From assembly GCA_045612185.1 (NCBI GenBank), contig JAZKYO010000100.1, positions 13,606 through 77,605 on the forward strand: 64,000 nucleotides of DNA. Direction: 5' to 3'. Under the pieces are notes generated by a model. The model saw only the letters and a list, made by a program, of their open reading frames with translations. It was not told the DNA's origin and did not search any database. The DNA is from Eubacteriales bacterium. GTDB taxonomy: Bacteria > Bacillota > Clostridia > Oscillospirales > CAG-272. Below are positions 4,968-23,519 of the stretch, one piece after another. The position numbers and the translations under genes were made by a program. Positions within the stretch are counted from its first letter, which is position 1, and the number at the start of each line of letters is the position of its first letter.

Positions 4968-4979
4968 TGAGGTAGAAAA

Positions 4980-7009: not shown

Positions 7010-7233
7010 TTATGCTTGAAAAACTTAAAGAGATACTTGGCAAAGTACTGCCAAACGTAGATATGTCAAAGGTTACCGAAGACACCAAAATGGTAGAGGA
7101 TTTGGGCTTTGACTCGCTTGCTATGATGATGATGTCAATGGAAATTGAGGACGCCTTCAACTTCAAGTTTGCGGAATTTGTCAAGTTTGAAACAGTAGGA
7201 GACGTTTGCAAATATCTCGAAAGCAGAATATAA
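7006..7233 (+). CDS. Acyl carrier protein
   Basis: DLGFDSL phosphopantetheine motif, acidic 75-aa protein, ETVGDV. Confidence 0.9.
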   Translation: MIMLEKLKEILGKVLPNVDMSKVTEDTKMVEDLGFDSLAMMMMSMEIEDAFNFKFAEFVKFETVGDVCKYLESRI

Positions 7234-7237
7234 CGCC

Positions 7238-7272
7238 AAAGGGCCGAGTTAACAAACTCGGCTTCTTTGTTT
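7238..7272 (+). terminator. Intrinsic terminator of the lipid operon
   Basis: GCCGAGTT-AACA-AACTCGGC followed by TTCTTTGTTT. Confidence 0.75.
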
Positions 7273-7304
7273 AAATAATTTCAACACATCTGAGGAGGTA
7301 TAAA

Positions 7305-8147
7305 ATGAAAGACAAAAAATTGACGGCAAAAAAGACAGAAGCTTTCAAGAGTTTTCTCACAAATGAGGAAAAAAGTGCGGCAACAATCGACAAATATATG
7401 CGAGATTTGCGTACTTTCAAGGATTTCATTGCCGAAAAACCCATAAACAAGCAATTGATTATGGAATACAAAAAATTGCTTGGCAACAGCTACGCTGTAG
7501 CAAGCGCCAACTCTATGATAGCCGCTCTTAACTCTTTTTTCAGGTTTTGCGGTTGGTACGAGCTGTGCATAAAGCAATTCCGAGTCCAAAAGCCCGCCTT
7601 CTGCTCCGAAGAAAAGGAGCTGAGCAAGGCTGAATATTTTCGACTTCTTGAAGCTTCAAGAAAAAGCAACAACGAAAGATTGAATTTAATAATCCAAACT
7701 ATCTGCTCAACAGGAATAAGGGTAAGCGAACTTGAATATGTAACGGTAGAAGCCCTTTATCAAGACAAGGTAACCGTAGACTGTAAAAATAAAACCCGTC
7801 ACATTTTCATTATATCGGAGCTTAAAAAACGGCTGATAAAATACGCACAAAAGCATGGCATAACTGCAGGTCCGGTGTTTGTGACAAGAAGCGGCAAACC
7901 TATAAGCAGATCAAACATCTGGCGTGAAATGAAGGGCTTGTGCGAGCAGGCACGTGTTTCGCCCAACAAGGTATTCCCCCATAACCTGAGACATCTGTTC
8001 GCCCGCACCTTTTACAGCATAGAAAAGGACATTGCCAAGTTAGCGGACATTCTCGGACACACCAACATAAACACCACTCGAATTTATATTATTACCACCG
8101 GCGCCGAACACAAAAGAAAGATGGAGAATTTACGGCTGATAAGCTGA
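7305..8147 (+). CDS. Tyrosine site-specific recombinase (putative DNA invertase)
   Basis: Complete catalytic set: TGIRVSEL (R), CKNK (K), HNLRH (HxxR), LGH, RIY (Y); 280 aa with no arm-binding domain. Confidence 0.92.
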   Translation: MKDKKLTAKKTEAFKSFLTNEEKSAATIDKYMRDLRTFKDFIAEKPINKQLIMEYKKLLGNSYAVASANSMIAALNSFFRFCGWYELCIKQFRVQKPAFCSEEKELSKAEYFRLLEASRKSNNERLNLIIQTICSTGIRVSELEYVTVEALYQDKVTVDCKNKTRHIFIISELKKRLIKYAQKHGITAGPVFVTRSGKPISRSNIWREMKGLCEQARVSPNKVFPHNLRHLFARTFYSIEKDIAKLADILGHTNINTTRIYIITTGAEHKRKMENLRLIS

Positions 8148-8159
8148 CCGTCCTCCCAC

Positions 8160-8192
8160 CGCTAAAATATAACATAACGAGAGTTATGTTGT
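8160..8192 (+). repeat. Left inverted repeat L1 (recombination site)
   Basis: CGCTAAAATATAACATAACGAGAGTTATGTTGT matches the reverse complement of 8440-8472 at 31/33 positions. Confidence 0.9.
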
Positions 8193-8202
8193 TTGAGTAC
8201 GG

Positions 8203-8221
8203 AACATAACGAGAGTTATGT
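8203..8221 (+). repeat. Second left site L2 (direct copy of the L1 core)
   Basis: AACATAACGAGAGTTATGT, identical to the L1 core. Confidence 0.85.
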
Positions 8222-8268
8222 ATCAAAAATTCGAGATGCGTACCATAATTTAGCTTTTAGTGGTGTCT

Positions 8269-8297
8269 ATTTTACCATATATAAACAAAAAAATCAA
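8269..8297 (-). promoter_or_regulatory. Sigma-A promoter inside the invertible segment, pointing away from the fibre operon
   Basis: Minus strand TTGATT-17 bp-TAAAAT with extended -10 TGG. Confidence 0.75.
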
Positions 8298-8439
8298 TAG
8301 GTTCGGCAAAATTTCTTCACATTATTTATAAACGTATACCCTTTTTATAAATTTTTTGTAAAAAACAACGAAAGGGGTCTTTTTTTTCGCCATTTTTTAA
8401 AAAGAAAGTGGCTTTTTTTGATATTGACGTTTTAGGGTT

Positions 8440-8472
8440 ACAACATAACTCTCGTTATGTTGTTTTTTAGCG
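8440..8472 (-). repeat. Right inverted repeat R (recombination site)
   Basis: ACAACATAACTCTCGTTATGTTGTTTTTTAGCG; core spacer CTCTCG is the reverse complement of CGAGAG in L1/L2. Confidence 0.9.
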
Positions 8473-8544
8473 TAGGGCAACCTACTATATATTGGTCAAT
8501 TCTCAAAATTTGACGTTACTTGTTATTCCGAGGAGGTGAAGTAA

Positions 8545-9696
8545 TTGTCACAAAAGCCCAACAGCACAAAAGAACGCGTTTTGTTTATCGCCATCATAGT
8601 CGTAGCTGTACTGTTGATTTTAAGCATTTCACTTTTGATTGCCGTTAAAGTCAGAGATTCGTCTGACATTCCCGTGTCGTCCGACAACGTGATCGGTATT
8701 TCGGGAAAAGCTGACCTGCCCGTTGTCAGACTTGGAGACTTTTCTTTAAGCAATCAGTATTTCGATTCCTCTGCCACGGCTGTTTTTCTTACGTCCACAA
8801 ATGAAGATAAGCTGACTTTGTCTTGGTGGACGGGTTACGGCGCGAAAAAAAGTTTTACCGCGACAAATCTTATGCCGGGTGACGTTGTGTCGCAACAGTT
8901 TACCGTTACAGAAAAAAACAACCGCGCTCAAAGCATGCGTTTCGACATCAAAAACATTACCGAAAAAAGCAGCGTGTCTTCGGGAGCAAACGTTAAGCTT
9001 GCCGATATTCTCAACGTTACCGTTGCAGTCGGAGAAAAAGCCCTTTATAACGGACCTTTTTCTCAAGCTCAGGATATCCGTTGCGATCTTCTCCCCGGTG
9101 CGTCGCCTCAGTCGGTTACATACTCGATAACGGTAAGCATGCCCAAGTCGGCAGGTAACGAATACGCCTACAAATCACTTACCGCTGATTTTTCGTGGAC
9201 ACTTGAGGAGCTTCCCTATCCGTCGCCCGGAGAAAACTATTTCCCCGAATATGACGAAACGACGCATGTGCCCGATACCGAGCCGATAGCCCCCCCCGAT
9301 ACTGAGCCTATCGACCCGCCCGACACCGAGCCAATAGAGCCCCCCGATACCGAGCCTATCGATCCGCCCGATACCGAGCCAATTGAGCCCCCCGATACTG
9401 AGCCTATCGACCCGCCCGACACCGAGCCGATTGAGCCGCCGATAACAGTCGACGAACACGAGGACTGTTGCAGCTGTATCATCTGTCACGGACTTGCGGG
9501 GCTGTTCGGTATACACAACGAAACCTGCTTTACGTGTAATATAATCACAGCTATAAGCGGTTCGGAAGAATTTGTTTGTCTGTGTCCCATAGACTGTCTC
9601 TTTCTTCTCATTGTAGTAATTGCGCTTGCGGCAGTCGTTATCAGAATTCTCTGGGTAAAGAGAAAAGTTAAACAAATTACCAAAAATCAAGAATAA
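8545..9696 (+). CDS. TasA/CalY-like domain protein with acidic Pro-rich stalk, Cys-rich segment and C-terminal membrane anchor
   Basis: N-terminal hydrophobic segment, NLMPGD and AGNEY motifs shared with the neighbouring subunits, PDTEPI(D/E)P repeats, C-terminal TM plus basic tail; TTG start with GGAGG. Confidence 0.7.
   Translation: MSQKPNSTKERVLFIAIIVVAVLLILSISLLIAVKVRDSSDIPVSSDNVIGISGKADLPVVRLGDFSLSNQYFDSSATAVFLTSTNEDKLTLSWWTGYGAKKSFTATNLMPGDVVSQQFTVTEKNNRAQSMRFDIKNITEKSSVSSGANVKLADILNVTVAVGEKALYNGPFSQAQDIRCDLLPGASPQSVTYSITVSMPKSAGNEYAYKSLTADFSWTLEELPYPSPGENYFPEYDETTHVPDTEPIAPPDTEPIDPPDTEPIEPPDTEPIDPPDTEPIEPPDTEPIDPPDTEPIEPPITVDEHEDCCSCIICHGLAGLFGIHNETCFTCNIITAISGSEEFVCLCPIDCLFLLIVVIALAAVVIRILWVKRKVKQITKNQE
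9271..9438 (+). repeat. Coding tandem repeat, 7 x 24 bp (PDTEPI[A/D/E]P)
   Basis: Repeat units read directly in DNA and protein. Confidence 0.95.
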
Positions 9697-9708
9697 CTCA
9701 AAGGAGAA

Positions 9709-10257
9709 ATGTCAGTGAAAAATTTAAGCATATCGAAAAAGCTGGCAATCAGCGTAGTGCTTCTGACAGTACTGTCACTCTGCCTTTGCGTTACCACCTT
9801 TGCGTTAACCTATTCAATCGTCACGGTAGAAAACAACATATTTTCATCCGGATACGTCAGTATTAACCTCAACGACGGAAAGCCGATTATTGAAGAAGAC
9901 GAATTTATCTTTGAACCCGGTATGACCGTAAAGAAAGATTTCTTTATCAAAAACAACAGCTCGTGGAGCGTTTATTATAAACTTTACTTTGACAACGTTG
10001 ACGGAGAGCTTGCTGACAGCCTGCTCATATCCATATCTGATGGAGATAGAATCCTTTATTCGGGAACGGCGAAAACCCTTGACAAATCGGTGCTCGCCGC
10101 CGATGACGAGCTTGCTATAGGTGAAAAACGCGAGCTTACGGTAACCTTCCATTTCCCAAACAACTTGGGAGACAAATTGCAAAACCAAGAATTGACCTTT
10201 GACCTCTGCGCCGACGCGGTGCAAACCAAGAATAATACTGAAAAATTATTTAATTAG
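9709..10257 (+). CDS. Small TasA/CalY-like SipW-substrate protein
   Basis: Signal peptide ending TTFA; ENNIFSSG, FEPG, YKLYF and DAVQTKNN motifs typical of SipW-cluster proteins. Confidence 0.7.
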   Translation: MSVKNLSISKKLAISVVLLTVLSLCLCVTTFALTYSIVTVENNIFSSGYVSINLNDGKPIIEEDEFIFEPGMTVKKDFFIKNNSSWSVYYKLYFDNVDGELADSLLISISDGDRILYSGTAKTLDKSVLAADDELAIGEKRELTVTFHFPNNLGDKLQNQELTFDLCADAVQTKNNTEKLFN

Positions 10258-10265
10258 GAGTATTT

Positions 10266-10988
10266 ATGACAAAGGAAAACAACAAAAAAAGCGTTTGGAG
10301 TATCATAAAGACGGTTTTTGTATGGCTTATCGTAGCCATTACGGTGCTTATTATGATATTCACCATTATCTCGGTCACAACATTTGACCAGAACGACAGA
10401 AATCTGTTCGGATTTAAGTTCTTCATCGTACAAACAGACTCAATGGCAGCAACCGATTTTGATGCGGGTGACGTTATCATTTCAAAAAACGTTGACGTTA
10501 CAAGCCTTAAAGAAGGCGACATCATTACCTTTATCTCTCAAGACCCCACCAACTACGGCGAAACCGTAACCCATAAAATCCGTGAGGTTACAAGAGATAC
10601 AGACGGCACAATAGCCTTCGTTACATACGGTACTACAACTAACGTAAACGACGAAACACTCGCTACTATCGTAGTAGGTAAATACATAGGCAAAATTCCC
10701 AATCTGGGCGCGTTTTTTCTCTTTCTTAAAACAACACCCGGTTATATTCTTTGCGTTCTTGTTCCTTTCCTTATTCTTATATTGTTTCAAGGAATTAACG
10801 TTATTGTTCTGTTCCGCAAATACAAAAAAGAACAGCTTGACGAAATGAACGCGGAAAAAGAAAAGCTTGAGCAAGAGCGTGCAGAAAGCCAGCGTATGAT
10901 GGCGGAGCTTATGGAGCTGAGAGCTCAACTTGCAAAACAGGAAGGCGGCAACACCGATAAACCCGAGGAGCAACCGCCCCAAGAATAA
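10266..10988 (+). CDS. sipW: Signal peptidase I, SipW/S26B (ER-type)
   Basis: Catalytic Ser in QTDSM, GDII, His in VTHKI, N- and C-terminal TM segments; located among SipW-class substrates. Confidence 0.85.
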   Translation: MTKENNKKSVWSIIKTVFVWLIVAITVLIMIFTIISVTTFDQNDRNLFGFKFFIVQTDSMAATDFDAGDVIISKNVDVTSLKEGDIITFISQDPTNYGETVTHKIREVTRDTDGTIAFVTYGTTTNVNDETLATIVVGKYIGKIPNLGAFFLFLKTTPGYILCVLVPFLILILFQGINVIVLFRKYKKEQLDEMNAEKEKLEQERAESQRMMAELMELRAQLAKQEGGNTDKPEEQPPQE

Positions 10989-11027
10989 TTAGTTGTATTG
11001 CGGAAAATCCGCTTTGCATAAAGTTAG
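10989..11027 (+). promoter_or_regulatory. Conserved leader stem-loop, copy 1 (also at 13500-13538 and 14324-14363)
   Basis: TGTA-TT-GCGGA-AAA-TCCGC-TT-TGCA hairpin upstream of the RBS of three subunit genes. Confidence 0.6.
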
Positions 11028-11055
11028 CCACACCACAATAAAGGAGGAAAAGACA

Positions 11056-13401
11056 ATGACTAACAAGAAGACAACCAAGCGCGCGTTGCTCCTTAGCGTT
11101 GTAGCACTTTTGCTTTGCTTCACAATGCTTATGGGTACAACTTACGCATGGTTCACAGACTCTGTTACGAGCACAGGAAACAAGATCGTAGCAGGAACAC
11201 TTGACGTCAAGCTTTTGATGTACAACGCAAACACAGGAGATTATGAGGACATCTCCACAACAACCGATCCCGTTATCGGTGCTGCTATCTTTGGCGAGGG
11301 CACAACAGCAAACGCTGACACCGCAGCTACCCTTTGGGAGCCCGGCAAGACTCAGACTGTATACCTTGCTATCGAGAACGCAGGCTCGCTTGATCTCAAG
11401 TATCAGGTAGCTCTTGAAGTTAAGAACGTTGAGAAGAATCTCACAGACGTTGTTAGCTACGCGATCTCTCCCGATGCAAAGCCCGACTCACAGCCCGTCA
11501 ACGGTTGGGTTGGTAACGGCATTCAGGTTGGCATGGGTATCAACCCCACAGCTTCTCAGAACGTAGCTCTTGCAGCAGGTAACACTCACTACTTCGCACT
11601 CTCCGTACATATGGACGAGGATGCAGGCAATGACTACATGAACGGCTCTATCGAGTTCGACATCAAGGTACTTGCTACTCAGCTTAATGCAGAAAATGAC
11701 AGCTTTGGTCCCGATTATGACGAGGATTCCACATATTATATAGAGTCCGAGTCGGTAGACACCACACAGGAAGTAACTAACAACATTATGTTTACATCTC
11801 ACAGCTCTAACAATTCGGTTAAGCTTGCTGTAAGTAAGGAAATACTCAATAATCTTCCTGCTGAAGTTGAATCCGTAGTTTTCTCTCACTCCGATCCTAA
11901 AGTTGACGAAGTAAACAAGATTATCTCTTACAATCACTTCGAGCTTGAGGATCAGAACGGCGCGGCTATCGACCTTACAAGCAACACTACTCCCATCGTC
12001 GTAACACTTCCCGCACAGGACTTCTTCCCTGCCGGCGAGTACGTTACAGTTAAGCACGACGGTGAAATTATAGGCGTAGGTCTTGTAAACGACGACACAA
12101 CTATCACCTATGAGGCAGTTCACTTCTGCGAGGTAGAGATTAGTGAAGCTGACGCGGCTTTCATTGCCGTTATCGCAAGCAAGCCCTATAACACTCTTCA
12201 GGATGCTATCAACGACGCAAAAGACGGCGACGTTATCAACCTTATGAGAGGCAGAGTGTCCGAAATCAGCGAAACTCTAAACGTTACGACAAACGCCAAC
12301 ATCAACGGTAACGGAAACGTTATCAAGAGAGCCGATGGTGCTGAAAATATAGTTATGTTTAGCGTAAACGACGGAAAGACACTTACTCTTTCCAACATCA
12401 CCCTTGACGGTGGCGCAGTTTGGACAGGTGAAATAAACCCCCACCTTCTTCGCGGAACTGAAAACAGCGGTAAAACAACAGGCGGTTATTTGATTTCTAC
12501 AGCCAAAGGCCATATCGTACTTGAAGAAGGTGCAATTCTTCAGAACAATGACGGTGCAAACGCAGTTTTCCCCGGAACTCGTACCGGTGGCACGCTCACA
12601 ATTAACGGCGGCGAGATTATCAACAATCATTCCGCTGCAGGTGCAATTTGGGGCGGTGGTGCTATCACTCTCAACTCCGGTAAAATAAACGGAAATCACG
12701 GCGGTATCGGCGGTGCTATCCGCGTAGTTACAAACATAGGCACAGTTCTTACTATGAACGGCGGTGAGATGAACCATAATATGTCTGATGCCGTCGGCGG
12801 CGCTATCTGGGCCGGTTCCAGCAGAAGCACCAACGTATACGTTCTCAACGGCGGTGAAATGGCTTACAACTATTCCGCATCAACAGGCGGTGCTATCTAC
12901 GCAGGCTACTACGAAACAGTTAAGATTGGCGGAGATTTCAAGATGCACGATAACAGCTGTTCGGCAAATATCGGCGCTGAAATCAGATTCCACGATCACG
13001 CAAGCCTTATTATGACGGGCGGTGAGGTTTCCAACGAGGCAGATAACGCATTCTACCTCAACAACAACTCCGCATCTATAACGGGCGGTAAGTACGTTGG
13101 TAACCTCGGTTACTCCGGCGGTCTTGGTCTTACCATCGGTGAGGCTGACATTGAAGGTGTTATCGCGTACGATCTTGCCACTAACCACAATACAGCAAAC
13201 CTTGCTACAAGCTTTAACAGCTTCAAGTTTACAGTTAACGAAAGCGCGGCTAACTTCGCACAGTTCAACTTCAAACCCGCCGCAGGTTACGTATACACCG
13301 AAGGCGACGAAGCTAAGCTTGTTTGCATGAACGAGGGTTACGAAACCTATTGGGATGCAGCGGCAGGAGTGTTCAAGCTTCAGACAGTTGCTGAAAACTA
13401 A
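11056..13401 (+). CDS. SipW-dependent TasA/CalY-type subunit with C-terminal beta-helix adhesin-like region
   Basis: SipW-class signal TTYAWFTDS, LWEPG, AGNDY, ATQ; GGAI-repeat beta-helix; AAGGAGG RBS places the start at 11056. Confidence 0.82.
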   Translation: MTNKKTTKRALLLSVVALLLCFTMLMGTTYAWFTDSVTSTGNKIVAGTLDVKLLMYNANTGDYEDISTTTDPVIGAAIFGEGTTANADTAATLWEPGKTQTVYLAIENAGSLDLKYQVALEVKNVEKNLTDVVSYAISPDAKPDSQPVNGWVGNGIQVGMGINPTASQNVALAAGNTHYFALSVHMDEDAGNDYMNGSIEFDIKVLATQLNAENDSFGPDYDEDSTYYIESESVDTTQEVTNNIMFTSHSSNNSVKLAVSKEILNNLPAEVESVVFSHSDPKVDEVNKIISYNHFELEDQNGAAIDLTSNTTPIVVTLPAQDFFPAGEYVTVKHDGEIIGVGLVNDDTTITYEAVHFCEVEISEADAAFIAVIASKPYNTLQDAINDAKDGDVINLMRGRVSEISETLNVTTNANINGNGNVIKRADGAENIVMFSVNDGKTLTLSNITLDGGAVWTGEINPHLLRGTENSGKTTGGYLISTAKGHIVLEEGAILQNNDGANAVFPGTRTGGTLTINGGEIINNHSAAGAIWGGGAITLNSGKINGNHGGIGGAIRVVTNIGTVLTMNGGEMNHNMSDAVGGAIWAGSSRSTNVYVLNGGEMAYNYSASTGGAIYAGYYETVKIGGDFKMHDNSCSANIGAEIRFHDHASLIMTGGEVSNEADNAFYLNNNSASITGGKYVGNLGYSGGLGLTIGEADIEGVIAYDLATNHNTANLATSFNSFKFTVNESAANFAQFNFKPAAGYVYTEGDEAKLVCMNEGYETYWDAAAGVFKLQTVAEN

Positions 13402-13417
13402 TTCATTTTAATATGTC

Positions 13418-13484
13418 CCCAAGCCCCCGGGGCTTGGGCGGCAATCAAAGGGCATAAGCAAGCTCTTATGCTTTTTGATTGCTG
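13418..13484 (+). repeat. Intergenic double stem-loop, copy A (copy B at 16078-16146; degenerate copy near 21506-21565)
   Basis: CCCAAGCCC...GGGCTTGGG then CGGCAATCAAAGGGCATAAG...CTTATGCTTTTTGATTGCTG. Confidence 0.8.
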
Positions 13485-13572
13485 AATGCAAATTACATCG
13501 TTGTACTGCGGAAAATCCGCCTTACATATAAGTTAGTCTACCAAAAAAATTAAAAACATAAGGAGGAAGAAA

Positions 13573-14274
13573 ATGACTAACACAATTTCAACCAAACGCA
13601 CACTTCTTTTTAGTGTAGTGGCTCTGTTCCTTTGCTTTGCTATGCTTCTCGGAACAACCTTTGCGTGGTTCACAGACTCTGTTACGAGCACAGGAAACAA
13701 GATCGTAGCAGGTAACCTCGATGTACAACTTTTGATGTACAACGCAAACACAGGAGATTATGAGGACATCTCCACAGCCACCGATCCCGTAATCGGAGCA
13801 GCTATCTTTGGCACAGGCGAAACAGCTAACGCTGATACTGCCGCTACCCTTTGGGAGCCCGGTAAGACTCAGACTGTTTACCTTGCTATCAAGAACAACG
13901 GTAACCTTGACCTTAAATATCAGGTTATTCTTGTGGTTGCTGACATTGTCAACAGCCTTACAGACGTTGTTAAGTACTCTATCACCCCCGACGCTACCCC
14001 CAACAATCCTGTAAGCCCTTGGAATACAGGTTTCACAGTTAATTCCGGTGCTAATATTGTCAGTGATCCCGCCGACGTTAGCCTTGAAAAGGACGCTATC
14101 CATTACTTTGCTCTCTCGGTTCATATGGACGAGACAGCCGGTAATGAGTACAAGAACGGTTCTATCACTTTTGATATCAACGTACTTGCTACTCAGCTCA
14201 ACTCCGAGCTTGACAGCTTTGATCCCGACTACGACAAGGACGCTGAAAACGTACTTGATACCACCACTCCCTAA
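13573..14274 (+). CDS. SipW-dependent TasA/CalY-type subunit, pilin domain only (likely major subunit)
   Basis: TTFAWFTDS signal motif, LWEPG, AGNEY, ATQ; 233 aa with no passenger domain. Confidence 0.82.
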   Translation: MTNTISTKRTLLFSVVALFLCFAMLLGTTFAWFTDSVTSTGNKIVAGNLDVQLLMYNANTGDYEDISTATDPVIGAAIFGTGETANADTAATLWEPGKTQTVYLAIKNNGNLDLKYQVILVVADIVNSLTDVVKYSITPDATPNNPVSPWNTGFTVNSGANIVSDPADVSLEKDAIHYFALSVHMDETAGNEYKNGSITFDINVLATQLNSELDSFDPDYDKDAENVLDTTTP

Positions 14275-14395
14275 GCAAGAAAAGTTTAGGGCTTAACTGC
14301 TCTACTCTTTTTTAACACTCTATTTAGTTGTATTGCGGGAAATCCGCTTTGCATAAGTTAGTCCATCAAAAATTTTATTTAAGGAGGAAAAGACA

Positions 14396-16063
14396 ATGAC
14401 TAACAAGAAGACAACCAAGCGCGCGTTGCTCCTTAGCGTTGTAGCACTTTTGCTTTGCTTCACAATGCTTATGGGTACAACCTACGCATGGTTCACAGAC
14501 TCTGTTACGAGCACTGGAAACAAGATCGTAGCAGGTGAGCTTGACGTTCAGCTTTTGATGCATGACGGCACAAACTATGTTGACATCTCCAACGTTAACG
14601 ATCCCATAATCGGTGCCGCTATCTTTGGCGAGGGCACAACAGCAAACGCTAACACCGCAGCTACCCTTTGGGAGCCCGGCAAGACCCAGACTGTATATCT
14701 TTCTATCAAGAATGCAGGCACACTTGACCTCAAGTACATGGTTGCTATCGAGGTTACCGATGTAACCAATAACCTTACAGAGGTTATGCAGTACGCTATC
14801 ACTCCCGATGCTAAACCCGACAACGGTCTCGTTACAGGTTGGGTTGCGGACGCAGGCAAGTACGTTGTTAAAGGCACTAACCCCACAGATGCTGTAAACG
14901 TTGTTCTTGGCAAGGGCGCTGAGCACTTCTTCGCTCTTTCCGTTCACATGGACGAGGATGCAGGCAATGACTACATGAACGGTTCTATCACATTCGACAT
15001 CAAGGTACTTGCTACTCAGCTTAACTCTGAGGAAGACAGCTTTGGTAAGGACTACGACAAGAATGCCGTATATCCTCAGGGTACAGCAGTTATCGCTGCC
15101 CAGACTATTACCGGAACAGCTGTTGCAGGCGAAACAGCAAACCTCACTAACGCAGACGGAACATTCACAGTAGAAGCAACTGCAGGTGCAACCGGTGAAG
15201 TTAAGGCTACCATTGCTCCCATAAGCGCAACAAATGAAGCTTTCACCGCTGCAGGTTCAACCGGCAAGAGCCTTGTTTCCTATGACGTTGAGGTTACAGG
15301 TCATGAAGACGGTACTCCCGTTACCTTCAGCTTCTTTGTAGGTGAAGATCTTGCAGATGTAGTAATCTTCCACAAGGGTGCTCCTATGACAGATGGCACA
15401 TACTCTTACTCTGCAAGCACAGGTTACGTAACAGTTACCACAAGTGACTTCTCCCCCTTTGAGGCAGCTTTCTACTATGCTGGCGATCTTCCCGTTGCAA
15501 AGGTTTCGTCCTTGACCGACATTCCCGAGGAACTTGAAGTTGGTTATCTCTTCGAAGCAACCGAAGAGATCCCCGAGCCCGAAGGCGAGAATGGCGAATT
15601 CACCGATGAGCAGATCGAAGCTTTCCTTGAAAAAGTTGCTCCCTACGGTCTCTGGCACGCTGACTTCGTTGTTTCCTTTGATAAGGACGTAGCTGAGGGC
15701 GCTGTTGTTCTCGGCGGTCAGTACGATGAATGGAGCGAGACCTGGGTATGCTTCAACACCTACAGAGACATCAAAGCAGGTGAGCGTCTCCGTTTGCTCG
15801 GTCAGGCTTATGCAGAATTGACTAACAACGAAAACAACAAAATCTACATGAATTACGCTGAGCTTTGCGGCTTTGTTCGTGAATTCAGCTGCGGCGTTGG
15901 TGCTAACGATGAAAGCGTAAGCGGTACAACTGTTACCGTCGAGCTTCGTCTTTACGAGACATATTCTGAGGAAGAGTGTCTTGAAAAGTTCGGTTATTCT
16001 TCTATAAACGAAGAAACAGGCAAATCTGTAGTAATCGCTACATACAACTACACATTCAAGTAA
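14396..16063 (+). CDS. SipW-dependent TasA/CalY-type subunit with C-terminal passenger domains
   Basis: TTYAWFTDS; N-terminal ~220 aa very similar to the 11056 gene, C-terminus unrelated. Confidence 0.82.
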   Translation: MTNKKTTKRALLLSVVALLLCFTMLMGTTYAWFTDSVTSTGNKIVAGELDVQLLMHDGTNYVDISNVNDPIIGAAIFGEGTTANANTAATLWEPGKTQTVYLSIKNAGTLDLKYMVAIEVTDVTNNLTEVMQYAITPDAKPDNGLVTGWVADAGKYVVKGTNPTDAVNVVLGKGAEHFFALSVHMDEDAGNDYMNGSITFDIKVLATQLNSEEDSFGKDYDKNAVYPQGTAVIAAQTITGTAVAGETANLTNADGTFTVEATAGATGEVKATIAPISATNEAFTAAGSTGKSLVSYDVEVTGHEDGTPVTFSFFVGEDLADVVIFHKGAPMTDGTYSYSASTGYVTVTTSDFSPFEAAFYYAGDLPVAKVSSLTDIPEELEVGYLFEATEEIPEPEGENGEFTDEQIEAFLEKVAPYGLWHADFVVSFDKDVAEGAVVLGGQYDEWSETWVCFNTYRDIKAGERLRLLGQAYAELTNNENNKIYMNYAELCGFVREFSCGVGANDESVSGTTVTVELRLYETYSEEECLEKFGYSSINEETGKSVVIATYNYTFK

Positions 16064-16174
16064 TATCTCAAAGCCTACCCAAGCCCCTCGGGGCTTGGGC
16101 GGCAATCAAAGGGCATAAGATTTACACTTATACCTTTTGATTACCGTTAAAATTAATTTTAAAAGGAGATAAAA

Positions 16175-19100
16175 ATGAAAAACACACGCAAGTCATTGTT
16201 TTGCAGCATAATTGCTCTCTTGCTCTGCTTTTCCATGCTTCTCGGTACAACCTACGCTTGGTTTACCGACTCGGTAACCAGTGTAAACAACATTATCAAG
16301 GCAGGTAACCTTGATATCGCTATGTACTGGAACGAGGACCTTACGGGCAGCTGGAAAAACATTGAAAACGAAAACAAGCTTTTCGACTATGACAAATGGG
16401 AACCCGGCTACACCGAGGTAAGATACGTAAAAATCGTTAACGAAGGCAATCTTGCTTTCAGATACGCAATGAGCGTTCTTCCTTTGGGTGAGGTAGGAAT
16501 ACTTGCCAATGTAATCGACGTTTACTACGTTGAAAATCCCACAGCTCCCATAGGCGACAGAACACAGCTGACCGCTCCCGTTGGCACACTTGCTCAGGTT
16601 ATCGCGGGTGAGTTTGTCACAAGTGGAAAAATGGAGAACAAGGGCGACGAGCTTATCGTCGGTATCGCTCTCAAAATGCGCGAGGATGCGGGCAACGAGT
16701 ATCAGGGCAAGTCTGTTGGAGACGCTTTCTCCATTCAGATCGTAGCAACACAGCTTGCGCACGAAAACGACTCCTTTGACAATACGTATGACGAAAACGC
16801 AACCTTCCCCGATGCTCCCGTAAACGAGGGCGTAACGGCTCCCGTTGAAAACGAGAACGGATTGGCTAAGAACGACGTTGCGCTTAACGGCACGAACGCT
16901 TCCGCAACCGTTCCCGCAGGCACCAAGCTTGAGGATGGCGCGTCAAAGCTCACACTTACAGTTACCGAGCTTAACGAAAGCGGCGCAAATATCGCGCTGG
17001 GTGAAAACGATGAGACAAAGTCTCTCGACGTCCATATCGACGGCGTTGCGGCTACAAACGACAAGCCTATAGTTATATCTCTCGGAGCTATTGCTCCCAT
17101 AGGACAGAACAGCGGCAACTTCAAGCTCTATCACGTAGAAAACGGTCAGAGCAACCAAATGACTGCTGTTGCAAGCGTTGCGGAGCTTGTAGCTCACAAC
17201 CAATTCTACTATGACCCCGCAACGGGCGAAGTAACAGTTGCTATGGCAACTTTCTCCGAGGTCGCTCTCGTGGCTGACACCGTAAACGCTTGGGAAGGCG
17301 TAGTTGCGACCGCTTTCGCGCGCGGTACAGGTACTGAAGACGACCCCTACATTATCGCAAACGCTGACCAGTTCGTATATTTAGGCGATCTTATTTCCAA
17401 CTATAATGAGAATTATGGAGACAAATACTACAAGCTCGTTGCCGACATAAACCTCGGCGGTGAGGAAAACGCAAACGAGGGACACATTTTCTATCCCATA
17501 GGTTATCACAAGGTAGGCGGTGAAATCGCGCCTGCAGACCTTGATGACGCTCCCGTTTTCGATTATTTTGATGACGCGGGCGAGGATTATGCGGTTTCTC
17601 ACGTCAGCGCAATAGCTGATAATGGTACAACTTGGTACACCTACGGCGGTGCTTTTCAAGGCACTTTTGACGGAAACGGACACACCATTTCCAACATCTA
17701 TCAGAACACCTGGCAATTGAAGGGTAACTACAGCGGTAATTACTGGAACGCCGCAATGGGTCTGTTCGGCTACGTAAACGGCGGTACTGTAAAGAACCTT
17801 ACGGTTGACAACTTCTCTTCCGACGGCGAGTTTACCCCCACGGGCGTTATCGCGGCTTACGCGGTTAACTCCACCTTTGAAAATATTGCTATCACAAACT
17901 GCAATCCCCGCGTTTACAACACGGGTAACGGCGGTATCGTAGGTATCGGCGGTAATTCAAGTGACCCCGACACTTATGCGCTCACGTTCACCAATATCAC
18001 TATAGACAACACCAACAAGATTTCGGCTCTTTGGGGCTCTTGGGACGTTGCCTGCGGCGGTCTTGTAGGTATGTTCCGCGGTGCGGGTCAAGTATACATG
18101 ACCAACTGCCACGTTGCGGCGCAGATCGACGTTTTCAACGACGTTTGCGGTAACTATCAGTATTATTGGTACCGCTACTCGGGCATGATGATCGGTACAA
18201 ATAAGAACATGATTACCGACACAAACGGTTACACCGTTCCCGAAACAAGCAAGTTCCACGCCGAGAACTGCACGGTTCACTTTGGCGATTGGAACGACTA
18301 CTACTACTGCGAGCTTGTAGCCAACTCTCTCGCATCCTATACTCACGACCACCAGTTCAGCCGTTTGACACAGATTCAGAACGTTTCCGAAATTCAGGAC
18401 GCAAACGGCAATTGGATAACGACCGGCAACTACATTTTGATGAACGGCAAGACTCCTACAGAGACCTGCTACCACATAGTAAACCAAAACGGAACGCTTA
18501 CACAGCATCTTCACACCGACGCGGGTGAGGAGACAGTAAACGGTGAAACTGTTCTTAAGGAAAATAATCAGCGCGTTTACCTTCCCTTTAACCAGCTCTT
18601 CACGGGCTACGGCTGGGGCGTAAAGCACATTCCCGTATATAACGGCGAGGACTACGCGTTTGATGGAATTACCATTCTTGACCGCGAAGTGGCTGATTCT
18701 GTTAAGAAGTTTGAAACCAAGTTTACAGGTGACTTCCTCTACCGTATAGGTAATCAGAATACAGTTTCTCTCGGTTCACTCTTTAAGGAAATAGACAATG
18801 TCAAACCTTCTGTGACAGATTCCGGCGTTTGGGTAACTGTCGAAGCAATTGACGAAAACTCCAACGTCAGCGGTGTATTCACAAAGGATACCGATACTTG
18901 GACTAACGGCACACTCAAATTCAGCGGCACAGGCGTTGTAAAGGTAACTATTCAGGACTATAACTACTGCAAGCCTACCGTTCTCTACCTTGAAGTTGTT
19001 GATGCAACCAACTTGACTTCCGCAACCGGAACAATAACCGGCGGTACGTTCGTATTGCTTTGTGATGTTAATACTTCAACTTATGTAAACTATTGGGACT

Positions 19101-21499
19101 GCACACTTTACGGAAACGGTTTCACATACTCTCTTAACGGTGCGCCCACGGCATACAACTCCAAGCAGGGACACGGTATACTTATTACCAAAAACGCGAC
19201 CCTTGACAACCTTGTAATTGTCGGTGATGTATACAACTCCTACGGAGCTTATACAAATCAGGATTATTACAATTCCGCAGTTGACGTTGTAGGCGACACT
19301 GTAATTCAGAACTGCTATATCTCCGGTTGTTCTGCGCCTATATCCACCCGTGCAAATGCTACGATTACTAATACCACCTTGTACGGTGGAACAGTAGCTA
19401 ACTTGATTATCAAATCAGGCACCGTTACGTTGGAAGACGTAACTACAGCCAATTACGACGACGGCAGATCACTTGTAGGAATGGGTATTGTTATCCACTC
19501 CGAAGCGACAGAATCCGCAAAGCTTATTCTTAACGGAACGCTTACTCAGTACAACTTTATAAGCGAAAGCAAAGTTCCTACCGACACATACGCAAAAAAT
19601 TTGCATACCGCAATGTTTGGTAATTCCTGCAGTAAGTATCATTTTGGAACAAGTCCTAACCGTTACGTTAACGCCGGTATTATCTCTCTGACAGCTTTGT
19701 TTAACGAATATGACATCACGGACAACGCTAATACAGGATACGTAGGAAATGCTGTAACCGTAAGTGGAGTAAACGGCTACGTATATACACAGCCCAATAC
19801 AAGCGGCTCTGTAAACAACAACTGTCCCGAGTATAAGCCCACCACCCAAGGAGCGGTTTCGCCGAGCTATAGCTTTGACCACACTATAAATGAGGTGGCA
19901 AAAACCGATGGTAGCAATGACTATTGCTACGAGGAAAGCGGCACCGTATATATCTCAATGGACGAGGGCGATTCTTTCGATTGGAATACTTCCATTTTGA
20001 CAGTAACCAAGCTTGGCAACAAGCTCGATTATACGGTTACTATGAATGCCACCGACTATACGGGAAAAACTATTACCTTTAACACCGCCGGTGATTATAC
20101 GGTGACGTATACTTATACAGATGGATACAATAGCAAGCTTAATGAAAAAGGCGACGTTACAACTTACGAAATAACGTATACGAAAACCGTTGCAATCAAC
20201 GTATCTATTATCAAACCGACTACCAAGCACGCGGAGTTTACTTTTGGTAGCGCAGGAACAGCCTCCACTTCGACAACTGTTGGGAATAATACCTACATTA
20301 TGCCTAACGTTACCGCGACAAGCTCCACGGTTGGAAGCATAACGGTTAGTGGAACAACAATTTACTATCCTATTGTCAATGCGTATACGTCAGACGGCGC
20401 AACCGCACATTCTTCTTTGAATAGTTGGTATATGTGCTATCCTGTGTTCAAAAACGTTATTTCGATTACAGATTATGAAAGTGCAGGAACAGGAAACGCC
20501 GTCACATATGGCAGTTCTACCACGACTATGCCCAGCGGCTTGTCGTTGACAGCGTATTCTAATTATTTCTCGCAGACAACGGCTCCCAGTGGTGCGGTAA
20601 GCTTTACTTCGGGTGGTGCGGATATCGCTTTTAAGTATCAGGCAAGTAACAGCGCGTCAAGCACACCGACAACGCTGAGTAACGTTTTGATATATGCTTC
20701 TCCTACATTAAGCAACAACGCACGTAACGAGATGTATCTGTTGGTACAGTACAAATATCAGGACAATGCCGGCGCGACTTACTATTACTATGTGGGATAT
20801 CATATGCCACAGACAACGGTGAAAAACGTATGCGTAACCCCCGATACACCTGTAACACTCGCTGACGGAAGCCAAAAGCGCATCGACCAAGTGACATATG
20901 AAGATCAACTTCTGGTTTGGGATTTCTTCAACGGCGAATATACCGTTGTTCCTTCCGCTATCATTTTCGATCACGGATATGATAATCGCAGAGTTCTGAA
21001 CTTGAATTTTGAGAATGGTATCACAGTTAAAGTTATTACAAATCACGGATTTTATCATGCACAAAGCGATTCGTTCGTATTCATTGACGAGGAGAACGTT
21101 GAATCGTATATCGGTTCAGACTTTGTGAGAATGAGCGGAGACAGTTACGATACGGTTAAGCTTATTGGATATTCTGTAACAGAAGAATATACCGGCGCAT
21201 ATTCGATACAGACTGCGTTGCATAACAACTTTATGGTTGAAGGAATGTTCTCGATCACTGAGCCGGAATTTGACGGCTGGTTCGACTACTTCGTAATCGG
21301 TGAGGGAATGAAGTATGACGAGGAAAAAATGCAGGCTGATATTGAAAAGTACGGCTTATACACCTATGAGGAATTTGCCGAGTATGTAACTTATGAACAA
21401 TTCATCGCATTTAACGGACCGTACTTGAAGGTATTGGTAGGTAGAGGCGTTGTTACTTATGAGCAGATTCTCGCACTCATTGATGCCTACGTAAATTAA
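16175..21499 (+). CDS. Large SipW-dependent subunit/adhesin (1774 aa) with GLUG-like/beta-helix region and C-terminal Hint domain
   Basis: TTYAWFTDS, WEPG, GTGTEDDPYII, FQGTFDGNGHTISN; Hint motifs CVTPDTPVTLADG, ITNHGF and AYSIQTALHNNFMVEG. Confidence 0.82.
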   Translation: MKNTRKSLFCSIIALLLCFSMLLGTTYAWFTDSVTSVNNIIKAGNLDIAMYWNEDLTGSWKNIENENKLFDYDKWEPGYTEVRYVKIVNEGNLAFRYAMSVLPLGEVGILANVIDVYYVENPTAPIGDRTQLTAPVGTLAQVIAGEFVTSGKMENKGDELIVGIALKMREDAGNEYQGKSVGDAFSIQIVATQLAHENDSFDNTYDENATFPDAPVNEGVTAPVENENGLAKNDVALNGTNASATVPAGTKLEDGASKLTLTVTELNESGANIALGENDETKSLDVHIDGVAATNDKPIVISLGAIAPIGQNSGNFKLYHVENGQSNQMTAVASVAELVAHNQFYYDPATGEVTVAMATFSEVALVADTVNAWEGVVATAFARGTGTEDDPYIIANADQFVYLGDLISNYNENYGDKYYKLVADINLGGEENANEGHIFYPIGYHKVGGEIAPADLDDAPVFDYFDDAGEDYAVSHVSAIADNGTTWYTYGGAFQGTFDGNGHTISNIYQNTWQLKGNYSGNYWNAAMGLFGYVNGGTVKNLTVDNFSSDGEFTPTGVIAAYAVNSTFENIAITNCNPRVYNTGNGGIVGIGGNSSDPDTYALTFTNITIDNTNKISALWGSWDVACGGLVGMFRGAGQVYMTNCHVAAQIDVFNDVCGNYQYYWYRYSGMMIGTNKNMITDTNGYTVPETSKFHAENCTVHFGDWNDYYYCELVANSLASYTHDHQFSRLTQIQNVSEIQDANGNWITTGNYILMNGKTPTETCYHIVNQNGTLTQHLHTDAGEETVNGETVLKENNQRVYLPFNQLFTGYGWGVKHIPVYNGEDYAFDGITILDREVADSVKKFETKFTGDFLYRIGNQNTVSLGSLFKEIDNVKPSVTDSGVWVTVEAIDENSNVSGVFTKDTDTWTNGTLKFSGTGVVKVTIQDYNYCKPTVLYLEVVDATNLTSATGTITGGTFVLLCDVNTSTYVNYWDCTLYGNGFTYSLNGAPTAYNSKQGHGILITKNATLDNLVIVGDVYNSYGAYTNQDYYNSAVDVVGDTVIQNCYISGCSAPISTRANATITNTTLYGGTVANLIIKSGTVTLEDVTTANYDDGRSLVGMGIVIHSEATESAKLILNGTLTQYNFISESKVPTDTYAKNLHTAMFGNSCSKYHFGTSPNRYVNAGIISLTALFNEYDITDNANTGYVGNAVTVSGVNGYVYTQPNTSGSVNNNCPEYKPTTQGAVSPSYSFDHTINEVAKTDGSNDYCYEESGTVYISMDEGDSFDWNTSILTVTKLGNKLDYTVTMNATDYTGKTITFNTAGDYTVTYTYTDGYNSKLNEKGDVTTYEITYTKTVAINVSIIKPTTKHAEFTFGSAGTASTSTTVGNNTYIMPNVTATSSTVGSITVSGTTIYYPIVNAYTSDGATAHSSLNSWYMCYPVFKNVISITDYESAGTGNAVTYGSSTTTMPSGLSLTAYSNYFSQTTAPSGAVSFTSGGADIAFKYQASNSASSTPTTLSNVLIYASPTLSNNARNEMYLLVQYKYQDNAGATYYYYVGYHMPQTTVKNVCVTPDTPVTLADGSQKRIDQVTYEDQLLVWDFFNGEYTVVPSAIIFDHGYDNRRVLNLNFENGITVKVITNHGFYHAQSDSFVFIDEENVESYIGSDFVRMSGDSYDTVKLIGYSVTEEYTGAYSIQTALHNNFMVEGMFSITEPEFDGWFDYFVIGEGMKYDEEKMQADIEKYGLYTYEEFAEYVTYEQFIAFNGPYLKVLVGRGVVTYEQILALIDAYVN

Positions 21500-21611
21500 A
21501 AAAACTCCCCGCCGCCTTCAGGTGGGAAAATCAAAGGGTGCAAAAAGAGATTTGAACCTTTTGAACACTAAAAATATTAACTCATGTAGATACTCGAAAG
21601 GAGGAAACGCT

Positions 21612-22424
21612 TTGGAAAAACAGAATAAATTTGAAAAGCTTACTGACAAGGCGTTTTCTCGCTTGATAGTCACTTCGATGCTTGGAATATTTATTTCCAT
21701 CATATCGCTTTGCTCGGTAACGTGGGCGTGGTTCAGTCAGGATATTACTGTTCCGTCCAACACTATAAAGGCAGGTTATTACGAGGCTAACCTTTCGGTA
21801 GCTAACGTGACCTATTCAACGTCAGTAACCGCTGACAACAAAACCGTTACCGTGCAAAACGAGTCACCGATAGACGCTGACACCTCTGTTCAAGGCTTTT
21901 ACAGGTATATGTTTGACGGAAATTCAGTATACAAGGTTAACATTCCCTACACTGCCAACGGCAGCAACGGATACTGCAAAATCCATATAGAGGGCTTGAC
22001 TGCGCCGTTATTTGCAAACATTTCGTCAAACGACAGCGAGTTTGATTTCTTGATTAAGCTATCAAGCGCAGCTGAGGTTCGCTTTGAGCTTCGTTGGGGT
22101 ACACACAGCGGAGAAAACGCTGTTGCTGACGGTGAGTTGCTGGAAGTTACCATTCCGGGCGACCAAGCCGAGAAACCGGCTGAAGAGCCACAACCCGTAG
22201 AGACTGAGCCCGTTGAAACTCAGCCTGTCGAGACTGAGCCCGTCGAAACCGAGCCAGTTGAGACTCAGCCTGTTGAAACCGAGCCCGTTGAGACCGAGCC
22301 TGTTGAAACTCAGCCTGTCGAGACCGAGCCTGTTGAAACCGAGCCCGTCGAGACCGAGCCCGTCGAGACCGAGCCTGTTGAAATTAACAACGACGCTTCG
22401 GAAGCTTCAGAAACAAACGAATAA
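21612..22424 (+). CDS. SipW-class protein with acidic PVET(E/Q) repeat tail
   Basis: VTWAWFS signal motif, NTIKAG; AAAGGAGG RBS before TTG 21612. Confidence 0.75.
22194..22382 (+). repeat. Coding tandem repeat, ~12.6 x 15 bp ([10 protein letters not shown])
   Basis: Repeat units read directly. Confidence 0.95.
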
Positions 22425-22433
22425 TACAATGCA

Positions 22434-22471
22434 AAAGGCGAAGGAGATTTTTCCTTCGCCTTTACTTATTT
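22434..22471 (+). terminator. Terminator of the fibre operon
   Basis: AAAGGCGAAGGA-GATTTT-TCCTTCGCCTTT hairpin. Confidence 0.75.
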
Positions 22472-22542
22472 GGTTAAAATCTCGACACTTTGCCGAGACG
22501 GTACAAAAACAAAAAAGCATAGCGCTTTCTTCTTTTTCTTCT

Positions 22543-22846
22543 CGCGCGTGCCCTCCCCAGTCGCATAGTCGCAGTGTGTCGCTCGGGGACTCGCATAAAA
22601 CAGATAAAGCCGAATGAGATTGACTCTTTCTTTTTATTTCTGCCCGCGCGTTGCCCTCCCCAGTCGCATAGTCGCCGCGCGTCGCTCGGGGACTCGCTTC
22701 CTTCGGCTCCTTGCTTTGAGGGGTATCGCTTCGCCAAAACGCCACCCGTGGCGGTTTAGCTTGCTCACCCTACCACCCCGCTTGGGGTGGCATAATGACC
22801 GCACGTTCGAGCAGAATCGCATAAAACAGATAAAGACGAATGAGAT
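22543..22846. repeat. Intergenic GC-rich REP-like repeat cluster
   Basis: ~52-bp unit at 22543-22594 and 22645-22697; 30-bp unit at 22591-22620 and 22817-22846. Confidence 0.7.
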
Positions 22847-22865
22847 AAACTCATTCGGCTTTATC

Positions 22866-22941
22866 TGGTCTAAGTGACACGACTTGAACGTGCGGCCTCT
22901 ACCACCCCAAGGTAGCGCTCTCCCAACTGAGCTACACCTAG
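22866..22941 (-). tRNA. tRNA-Pro (GGG)
   Basis: 76-nt cloverleaf CTAGGTG...CACTTAG-ACCA; anticodon arm CTACC-TTGGGGT-GGTAG; TTCAA T-loop. Confidence 0.95.
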
Positions 22942-22960
22942 ATGTCTTAACGACTTGGAT

Positions 22961-22989
22961 ATTATACCACAACTATGAGAGAAAGTCAA
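22961..22989 (-). promoter_or_regulatory. Sigma-A promoter of tRNA-Pro
   Basis: TTGACT-17-TATAAT with TG extension. Confidence 0.85.
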
Positions 22990-23191
22990 GTGTTTTTTGG
23001 AATTTTTTTAAAAGTTTTTTGTGTTTTTTTGTCGAAAAATTTATTTTGATTTGTCAATCGGCAAAGTGTACAAAATACCCCCCGTTTTAGTGGATATTTT
23101 TCTATGCTATGTAATTTTAACCAAACTTTTCGCTAAAAAAACGTCACTTTTAACAATTTACAAATCGACAAATATGTGGTACAATGTTAAT

Positions 23192-23377
23192 CGTGGAAAT
23201 CAGGCATGGGCCAACAGCCTGCTTTGCCAAAATAAGAGCACAACGTTTTTCTCCGTAATTTGCGAGGTATCAAGCTTATGATATTGGGAACGCTTATACG
23301 GCACACGTTGTGTTTTTTATTTTTTATTATCAGGGCAGACATTTACAGAACTAACCTACTAAGGTTGGTTCTTTTTT
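23192..23377 (+). ncRNA. Candidate ~185-nt structured small RNA (6S-like size)
   Basis: Own promoter TTTACA-17-TACAAT (23157-23185), long imperfect hairpin, terminator at 23347-23377, no ORF with an RBS. Confidence 0.5.
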
Positions 23378-23519
23378 ATTCCCTTGACCCGATATTTACG
23401 GATATTTAATAATAAATTGTAAAAATTCGAAAAAGATATAGCAATTTGGAAAAGTTTGTGGTATAATATATTCTGTATATTTATATTTACGAAGAAAATT
23501 TTCCCGAAAGGTTTTAAAT

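Follow-up and report, generated by a model that had tools for sequence, protein, structure and literature searches.

In Bacillus, the fiber protein TasA assembles by donor-strand exchange (PMC9674648), and its partner TapA has a donor N terminus, a complete core, and an acidic C terminus (PMC10151520). Heteropolymers are described within the TasA superfamily for B. cereus (PMC13082335), while another account gives a model in which SipW acts after assembly and reports operons with multiple TasA paralogues beside LPxTG proteins and sortases, for which heteropolymers were also suggested (PMC11580942). In the archaeal Pyrobaculum fiber, AbpB has been proposed as the first-strand donor bearing adhesin domains (PMC9245690). 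The DNA analyzed here, called the window, is a stretch of 64,000 nucleotides from a Eubacteriales bacterium (assembly GCA_045612185.1, contig JAZKYO010000100.1), with all positions counted from its first letter. At positions 8545 to 22424 it contains an eight-gene operon with a SipW-type signal peptidase. We consider it fairly probable that this operon, behind an invertible promoter, builds a cell-anchored TasA-type fiber showing swappable, probably adhesive passengers.

Gene content and conserved order of the operon

All eight open reading frames (ORFs) are co-oriented on the plus strand, and each is preceded by a purine-rich ribosome site. In order, they code for a base or anchor subunit of 383 amino acids (aa; 8545..9696), an adaptor of 182 aa with a TFA↓L signal and a full TasA-type core (9709..10257), a SipW-type (endoplasmic reticulum/archaeal-type) signal peptidase of 240 aa (10266..10988), a subunit of 781 aa starting at ATG 11056 (11056..13401), a bare pilin subunit of 233 aa (13573..14274), a subunit of 555 aa (14396..16063), a giant subunit of 1774 aa (16175..21499), and a "cap" subunit of 270 aa (21612..22424), for which TTG 21612, preceded by a GGAGG site, is the most likely start. 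A terminator-like hairpin (22434..22463, plus strand, z -5.68) closes the operon. SipW scores 58.8 with TIGR02228 against a cut-off of 51.85, and its best match, the Bacillus equivalog NF046067, stays under the cut-off (75.8 versus 190). These are the sole TasA/SipW-type genes in the 2.6-Mb genome.

A previous interpretation made from the letters of this stretch (the sequence-only reading) had counted one sipW, five genes with T(Y/F/W)A↓WF signals, and seven TasA/CalY-like substrates in all. Five proteins do bear the motif, and SipW passes its family model. The figure of seven holds only in part, as six proteins have a TasA-type core and the 270-aa protein matches only over residues 12-68. We also agree that the locus itself lacks a sortase gene and that none of its eight proteins has a C-terminal xPxTG motif. 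That reading did not cover two parts, namely, the recombinase upstream of the operon with the promoter that it would invert and the Hint module that ends the 1774-aa subunit.

A scan of GTDB (one genome per species) with the adaptor gave 151 relatives, and the best 80 were kept as loci for all the counts that follow; judging from the titles of these best 80, almost all are from gut Clostridia. The base gene precedes that of the adaptor in 74 of the 80 loci, and in 73 the adaptor gene is followed by sipW. Where a cap-like gene was called (31 loci), no recognized gene of the operon comes after it, and these 31 loci hold from 0 to 5 pilin genes. This conserved multigene architecture bears out the earlier statement that the locus is more elaborate than tapA-sipW-tasA. 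Of the 41 genomes searched, 12, with the source genome among them, gave a match to the 233-aa protein, and 20 regions were compared. Yeguia hominis (L055) and Merdimmobilis hominis (L076) are cultured relatives with the operon. We also found lone pilin-passenger genes with no sipW in the compared region (L023, L024, and L027, from genomes G005 and G027). G005 has 11 pilin matches and G027 has 8, which suggests that subunits are supplied in trans.

Pilin domain and predicted fold

Two family models detect the N-terminal domain shared by the subunits. TIGR04088 (cut-off of 19 bits) is passed by the 781-, 233-, 555-, and 1774-aa proteins (25.2, 27.1, 22.4, and 19.2 bits, respectively), and PF12389 (Peptidase_M73) by the 182-aa (30.7 bits), 781-aa, and 555-aa proteins, with the 233-aa (22.2) and 1774-aa (22.3) proteins narrowly under its cut-off of 22.5. 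No TIGR04088 match was obtained in the 182-, 270-, and 383-aa proteins; the first two of these show the signal motif by eye, and the 383-aa base has an N-terminal hydrophobic segment but no TFA cleavage motif. A check with these two models had been proposed in the sequence-only reading; four proteins are recognized by TIGR04088 and three by PF12389.

In profile comparisons by hhalign, the adaptor matched the pilin at 99.0% over residues 3-173, the base matched the pilin core at 97.1%, and base and adaptor matched each other at 96.4%. The 270-aa protein aligned with the pilin profile over residues 12-68 only, that is, the signal and the first strand. Judging by these profiles, six of the eight operon proteins carry the TasA-type core. 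In their N-terminal domains, the 781-, 233-, and 555-aa proteins share 68 to 76% identity with one another, and the 1774-aa protein has 40 to 42% identity to these three.

An AlphaFold2 model of the 233-aa subunit, built from a 96-sequence alignment (96 of 120 listed homologues), consists of a signal helix and a beta-sandwich with a mean pLDDT of 84.7. Foldseek gave only two matches at an E value of ≤0.001, the fiber form of TasA (8AUR; E 7.3e-6, TM 0.42) and the Pyrobaculum protein AbpA (7UEG; E 4.5e-5, TM 0.37), and the subunit is predicted to fold like TasA. Together with the hhalign links to base and adaptor, these matches favor the TasA-like fold that had been proposed for the N-terminal domains. 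In the monomer model, no strand is assigned to residues 31-50, as expected if this strand is donated elsewhere. They cover the predicted donor strand, with the consensus WFTDSVTS..N.I..G next to the TxA↓WF cut site, in which W32, D35, and N42 are invariant. This strand hardly differs between the 781-, 233-, and 555-aa subunits, for which mixed chains would therefore be expected, and the near-identity of the strands predicted to be donated by the bare subunit and the three large ones is in line with the heteropolymer of the sequence-only reading.

Passenger domains

The large subunits differ in what follows the pilin domain. The 781-aa subunit continues with a likely right-handed beta-helix, for which the Atlas neighbors Chlam_PMP/Beta_helix at 0.94 provide a lead. 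The 555-aa subunit has a second domain and a distal domain, and the 1774-aa subunit has a divergent pilin domain, a modular passenger, and a C-terminal Hint domain with a tail. Pfam gave nothing meaningful on five passenger pieces of the window, and sequence searches of the Protein Data Bank (PDB) with two passengers gave nothing significant. In the cap, the SipW signal and first strand are followed by an unrelated beta-rich domain, for which an Atlas look-up gave unnamed clusters only, all under 0.9, and by acidic (E/Q)PVET repeats.

We scanned 50 subunits for passenger families (E≤1e-4), of which 44 belong to the 85 passenger-bearing pilins of the 80 loci and 6 come from the compared regions. 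Families were assigned in five of them, with three Beta_helix domains, one Pectate_lyase_5 adhesive domain, and one BspA LRR. No enzyme family appeared among the 50, and the passengers look adhesin-like rather than enzymatic, so the enzymes that the sequence-only reading had allowed for as passengers find no support. It had also described the passengers as unrelated, and BLASTP indeed shows no likeness among them; however, an iterated profile reveals that the 555- and 1774-aa subunits share their second domain (E 1.5e-17). Its idea of modular display fared better, as the passenger of the 781-aa subunit recurs on a different pilin in L021 (E 6e-181) and the shared domain of the 555- and 1774-aa subunits points in the same direction. 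Parts of the 1774-aa subunit also recur in secreted proteins other than pilins. Single-linkage clustering was uninformative and put 73 of the 85 passengers in one cluster because common subdomains chain the clusters.

A 36-nt leader repeat precedes three of the pilin genes (10986..11021, plus strand, with further copies at 13494-13529 and 14321-14356). Public sequencing runs were taken in when their word share was at least 0.2. The contigs of runs X1 and X3 join position 11004 to 14340 at this repeat, leaving out two genes, and a joint from 11429 to 14772 is found in contigs of all four runs. Such joints are consistent with other strains having lost a cassette or having mosaic paralogues.

A probable invertible promoter upstream of the operon

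The type 1 pilus of Escherichia coli has an invertible promoter, fimS, with the tyrosine recombinases FimB and FimE, before a donor-strand pilus operon. The DNA upstream of the operon in the window appears to be organized in a similar way. A tyrosine recombinase of 280 aa (7305..8147, plus strand; PF00589, 80.8 bits) has intact catalytic motifs (GIR, HNLR, LGH, and TRIY) and is likely an invertase. It is followed by three plus-strand recombination sites found by motif scan: site A (8172..8189), ACATAAC-GAGA-GTTATGT; site B (8204..8221), with the core oriented as in A; and site C (8443..8460), with the inverted core TCTC. The motif ACATAAC-N4-GTTATGT is present in these 3 copies versus 0.16 expected, and they are the sole exact copies in the whole genome. 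The segment between the sites holds a promoter-like sigma-70-type sequence on the minus strand (8269..8297; TTGATT-17-TAAAAT with TG) and a terminator-like hairpin (8389..8412, plus strand) called by consensus scan only. We infer that the window represents the OFF state, since the promoter points away from the operon. The recombinase would flip the 239 to 271 bp that separate site C from either A or B, placing the promoter about 150 to 180 bases before the first gene and likely switching the operon on or off. A closely similar promoter site faces the operon in L021.

Both orientations exist in public DNA. Contigs of the public runs were compared with positions 7800-9000 of the window at a likeness threshold of 88%, and inverted contigs were found in three of the four DNA runs, coming from two studies. 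X2 has an A-C inversion (46 letters on the short side), and X4 has a B-C inversion (117 letters), the inverted pieces differing from the window by about 1 to 3%. In X6, a more distant strain, a single 964-nt contig spans both junctions of a B-C inversion; X5 does not cover the switch. At the recombinase gene, positions 7067-7633 are covered by the DNA runs but by no contig of the RNA runs X1 and X3, in which the first long pieces begin at 8518 and 8450, respectively. Both RNA runs come from a single study, with DNA possibly present, so we did not count this pattern as evidence of the start or level of transcription.

Among the 80 loci, pairs of sites with inverted cores are found in 8 of the 9 with the recombinase versus 0 of the 71 without it. 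The core sequences vary from locus to locus and are always reverse complements within a locus. In 12 loci with site pairs, the promoter points toward the operon in five and away from it in five and was not called in two, and L040 and L067 have a nearly identical promoter in opposite directions. A switch dedicated to the pilus operon was considered and rejected, as the cassette precedes many types of genes and is missing upstream in 71 of the 80 loci (20 of these with less than 2 kb of upstream DNA). Twenty-four of 29 further recombinase loci have the inverted-core pair before varied genes. In this set (L121 to L149), the portable recombinase comes with an ACATAA-N6-TTATGT inverton, in some cases with up to five sites, and the genes that follow are type IV prepilin-like, secreted, helicase-like, or regulator-like. 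In L021 (4200-5100) and in L121 to L123, a regulator-like ORF (TetR-like by eye) separates the switch from the genes that follow.

Proposed assembly and anchoring of the fiber

Protease-freed donor strands and a division into tip, stalk, and anchor subunits are known from type V pili. For the operon of the window, we propose that the subunits are exported and that SipW would cut their signal peptides at TxA↓WF, releasing an N-terminal strand. As in TasA, this strand would fill the beta-sandwich of the subunit that follows, and the subunits would probably polymerize by such donor-strand exchange. The 270-aa protein, with a donor strand and no detectable acceptor core, would resemble TapA or AbpB in initiating the chain and capping it, and the base, with a core but no cleavage motif, would end it and tie the fiber to the cell via the 182-aa adaptor. 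We infer SipW cleavage, chaining, initiation by the cap, and termination at the base from the work on TasA, TapA, and BsaA.

The fiber would be held at the cell by a membrane segment at the locus of the window and, likely, by sortase attachment to the wall in most relatives. In 62 of 74 base proteins, an xPxTG motif is found within the last 60 residues, followed by a hydrophobic segment and a basic tail, while elsewhere it is found in 0 of 118 pilins, 0 of 80 adaptors, 0 of 77 SipW proteins, and 1 of 31 caps. TIGR01167 is matched at E≤0.01 by 35 of 70 aligned bases, and 43 of the 62 motifs read (S/P)PxTG, the motif cut by SrtB of Clostridium difficile (PMC4155245). The presence of xPxTG on the bases and not on the shaft pilins suggests that polymerization is likely sortase-free, whereas wall attachment in the family is usually sortase-based. 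The term "sortase-independent," applied by the sequence-only reading to the system, is not supported for the system as a whole, given the sorting signals of the related bases, and fits only this locus, which is exceptional in having just a membrane segment as its anchor. Its base has PDTEP repeats and, like two relatives, a Cys-rich C-terminal membrane segment, and the genome codes elsewhere for one class B-like sortase (C30, over the PF04203 cut-off). The base domain also ends much longer proteins in L021 (871 aa) and L034 (513 aa).

The adaptor has near-invariant residues among the 80 loci (N43 in 77, E63 in 72, E65 in 77, and K76 in 77), the spacing of which resembles the N35/E56/K74 triad of BsaA. 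The pilin of the window has Val at the position of the adaptor Lys; in the bases, 48 of 70 have Lys in the aligned column, and the base of the window has Gln. Possibly, the Asn, Glu, and Lys of the adaptor lock its junction with the base by an isopeptide bond of the BsaA type.

Several observations weigh against the fiber model. The Foldseek TM-scores are modest (0.42 and 0.37), and the pilin and adaptor sequence profiles found no significant solved relative in the PDB. Forty-five of the 50 scanned subunits have no assigned passenger family. The 80 loci were chosen by adaptor likeness and are kin, and counts made on them describe a family and not independent cases. In these loci, there is 1 complete bare pilin against 85 that bear passengers, and 17 of the 31 cap-bearing loci have a single pilin gene; with bare subunits rare and single-pilin loci common, the usual arrangement is not a long rod made of a major pilin. 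The 383-aa base of the window has no xPxTG sorting signal, and a motif filter over the proteins found no xPxTG-plus-membrane substrate in the genome. The alternative promoter orientations come from different samples rather than from switching seen inside a single population, and they were called with an 88% threshold and include the distant strain X6. Last, the base keeps a strand-like VTVPDNLI motif (Asn in 67 of 70) and might donate rather than accept.

This last point leads to the alternative that survives best, although we judge it unlikely, in which the polarity is reversed. The base would donate its VTVPDNLI strand to the adaptor and nucleate the chain like TapA, a cell-associated strand donor (PMC10151520), and the 270-aa protein would plug the open groove of the base close to the cell. 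The motif aligns with the donor strand of the adaptor, Asn included. However, the base has no TxA cleavage motif at which such a strand could be released, it has a full acceptor-type core, and in relatives it is followed by a long low-complexity linker.

A less probable option is that the operon makes a released biofilm matrix of shed TasA/BsaA-like fibers, the base being a chaperone or a transient tether. BsaA polymers are described as mostly extracellular, with sortase not needed (PMC7395162), CapP acts as a chaperone (PMC13082335), and the absence of a sortase motif in the base of the window would be easy to reconcile with shedding. A released matrix is harder to reconcile with the sorting signal in 62 of 74 related bases and the C-terminal membrane segment of this one, with the TasA-type core of the base itself, and with the fixed order of the genes.

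We find it slightly more doubtful still that the TasA-type domain is only a self-complemented head for export and folding, or a one-step dock onto base and adaptor, displaying monomers or dimers with no polymer. The rarity of bare subunits and the many operons with a single pilin gene would suit such a display, as would the orphan pilin genes away from sipW in G005 and G027 and the ability of monomeric TasA to self-complement (PMC9674648). On the other hand, the best structural match is the fiber form of TasA, the donor-strand residues W32, D35, and N42 are invariant, the locus has a clean bare subunit, and a donor-only cap makes sense only if there are open grooves. Secreted M73 "camelysin" metalloproteases with accessory domains are highly improbable, as the 233-aa protein has no HExxH motif, the match to PF12389, whose name Peptidase_M73 is the point in their favor, covers mostly the signal and first strand, and the peptidase label itself is likely a misidentification (PMC11580942).

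C-terminal Hint module of the giant subunit

At its C terminus, the 1774-aa subunit has a Hint domain that starts at Cys1553 and, after it, about 70 aa of conserved helical tail (20831..21499, plus strand). AlphaFold2 modeled residues 1553-1774 as a Hint fold plus a helical tail with a pLDDT of 95.5, and Foldseek matched the model with inteins, BIL2 of Tetrahymena, and Hedgehog at E values of about 1e-8. In 53 aligned members, the first Cys is present in all 53 and the block-B His in 52, His-Asn is absent, and the columns aligned to the terminal Ala-His of BIL2 read mostly S/T followed by L/V/I. Intein splicing was rejected on the absence of His-Asn, and matches of the region to limonene epoxide hydrolase were discarded as chance. 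According to the model, the giant subunit likely cleaves itself N-terminally before Cys1553, without splicing, and would shed the Hint-plus-tail piece.

The tail is more conserved than the Hint domain (mean identity to the sequence of the window of 0.64 versus 0.48) and matched neither the sterol/adduct recognition region (SRR) of the Hedgehog Hog domain nor any Pfam family. A Hint-plus-tail profile retrieved 2,040 cluster representatives at E≤1e-30, and in 132 of 139 newly listed members the module is within 15 residues of the C terminus. Among the 119 members that begin with Met and reach 700 aa or more, 20 have a TasA-type pilin domain (three of them weak and internal) and 26 a type IV prepilin signal. 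Among the newly listed members (P0207 to P0345), the module also terminates giant type IV prepilins and lipoprotein-like and dockerin-bearing proteins.

A bolder joint reading, which we regard as speculative and doubtful, would make this a class of hybrid pili in gut Clostridia, polymerized by donor-strand exchange that SipW triggers, held to the wall by a sortase or membrane base, and made phase-variable by a portable inverton, in which the giant subunits act as covalent harpoons via Hint. A thioester would form at Cys1553, and the tail would pick an outside nucleophile (a host or plant glycan, a sterol, or a protein amine), joining the fiber covalently to its target in the fashion of Hedgehog; type IV pili would be armed by the same module.

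RNA elements and neighboring genes

Two double-hairpin RNA elements follow pilin genes on the plus strand, at 13417..13482 (z -7.25) and 16078..16145 (z -6.57). By nhmmer and a manual count of the search output, relatives are found in 47 of 100 loci at E≤0.01, and an Rfam scan over 6500-24000 gave no match, these elements included. They may set the stoichiometry of the subunits.

Downstream of the operon, we found two 46-nt repeats (93% alike) and a minus-strand tRNA-Pro(ggg) at 22549-22697 and 22866-22941 and, beyond these, an ORF for an 808-aa Lon-like protease (named by eye). A genomic island, suggested by the integrase and the tRNA-Pro, was rejected, as the recombinase is explained by its adjacent sites and the GC content of the locus is ordinary. 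A lipid operon lies upstream (2320-7233), its last gene being acyl-carrier-like. Farther away, an ORF at 33879-36476, in a stretch of low GC (0.376), codes for an 865-aa N6-adenine methyltransferase-like protein, possibly an acquired restriction-modification gene, and a 1981-aa ORF on the minus strand (50877-58943) without a clear Pfam family lies beside a 657-aa sialate O-acetylesterase-domain protein.

Comparison with known systems

Passenger-bearing TasA pilins, a sortase base with a TasA core, the inverton, and the Hint-plus-tail module were not described in the literature that we searched, which included few subscription papers and no supplements; the main text of PMC11892184 contains no SipW, TasA, or ACATAA. 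The 151 GTDB stretches that encode an adaptor relative point to a common, unstudied surface appendage of gut Clostridia, which would unite three things known separately, namely, self-assembly of the TasA type, anchoring to the wall by sortase, and phase variation as with fimS. For the display of proteins, shaft subunits with large passengers of their own would be a scaffold ready to use. The Hint-plus-tail module offers a testable bacterial parallel to Hedgehog autoprocessing, and the cultured carriers of the operon make the pilus claim directly testable.

With B. subtilis tapA-sipW-tasA and B. cereus sipW-tasA-capP-calY, the locus shares a cognate SipW, SipW-class signals, the predicted TasA-type fold, and a donor-only partner with an acidic tail. 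It differs from these Bacillus systems in the passengers of 300 to 1550 aa, in an anchor subunit with a TasA core that is usually sortase-tagged, in the conserved adaptor, and in the probable control by DNA inversion, and identity to 8AUR is 12%. The sipW-bsaABC operon of C. perfringens is clostridial, too; it also combines SipW with several TasA paralogues, and its expression is bimodal. TIGR04090, the BsaA family, gives 13.1 bits with the 182-aa protein against a cut-off of 60 and weakly matches 25 of the 80 adaptors (best E 3e-5). Unlike in bsaABC, however, the shaft subunits of the window lack the acceptor Lys position; there, BsaC is separate and not fused, and regulation is by a two-component system. 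AbpA/AbpB of Pyrobaculum, the second structural match, is archaeal and has no dedicated SipW, and no wall anchor or switch appears in the available portions of PMC9245690. Sortase-polymerized Gram-positive pili are set apart by the lack of a sortase in the locus and of xPxTG in all 118 pilins.

The upstream switch is organized like fimS, with inverted sites, an internal promoter, an adjacent tyrosine recombinase, and both orientations in DNA. In contrast to the type 1 pilus, there is no usher or periplasmic chaperone, the site sequence is unrelated, and the recombinase-site cassette is portable and precedes many gene types. The Hint module resembles Hedgehog Hog and BIL domains in its fold, N-terminal Cys, block-B His, and C-terminal position on a secreted protein, and Hog in particular in the conserved tail and the absence of His-Asn. 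Unlike Hog, it is bacterial, its tail does not match SRR, and it is fused to TasA pilins, type IV prepilins, and other secreted proteins. Set against these systems, the operon is a real and widespread variant of the TasA superfamily, apparently undescribed, that probably forms a phase-variable, cell-anchored display pilus.

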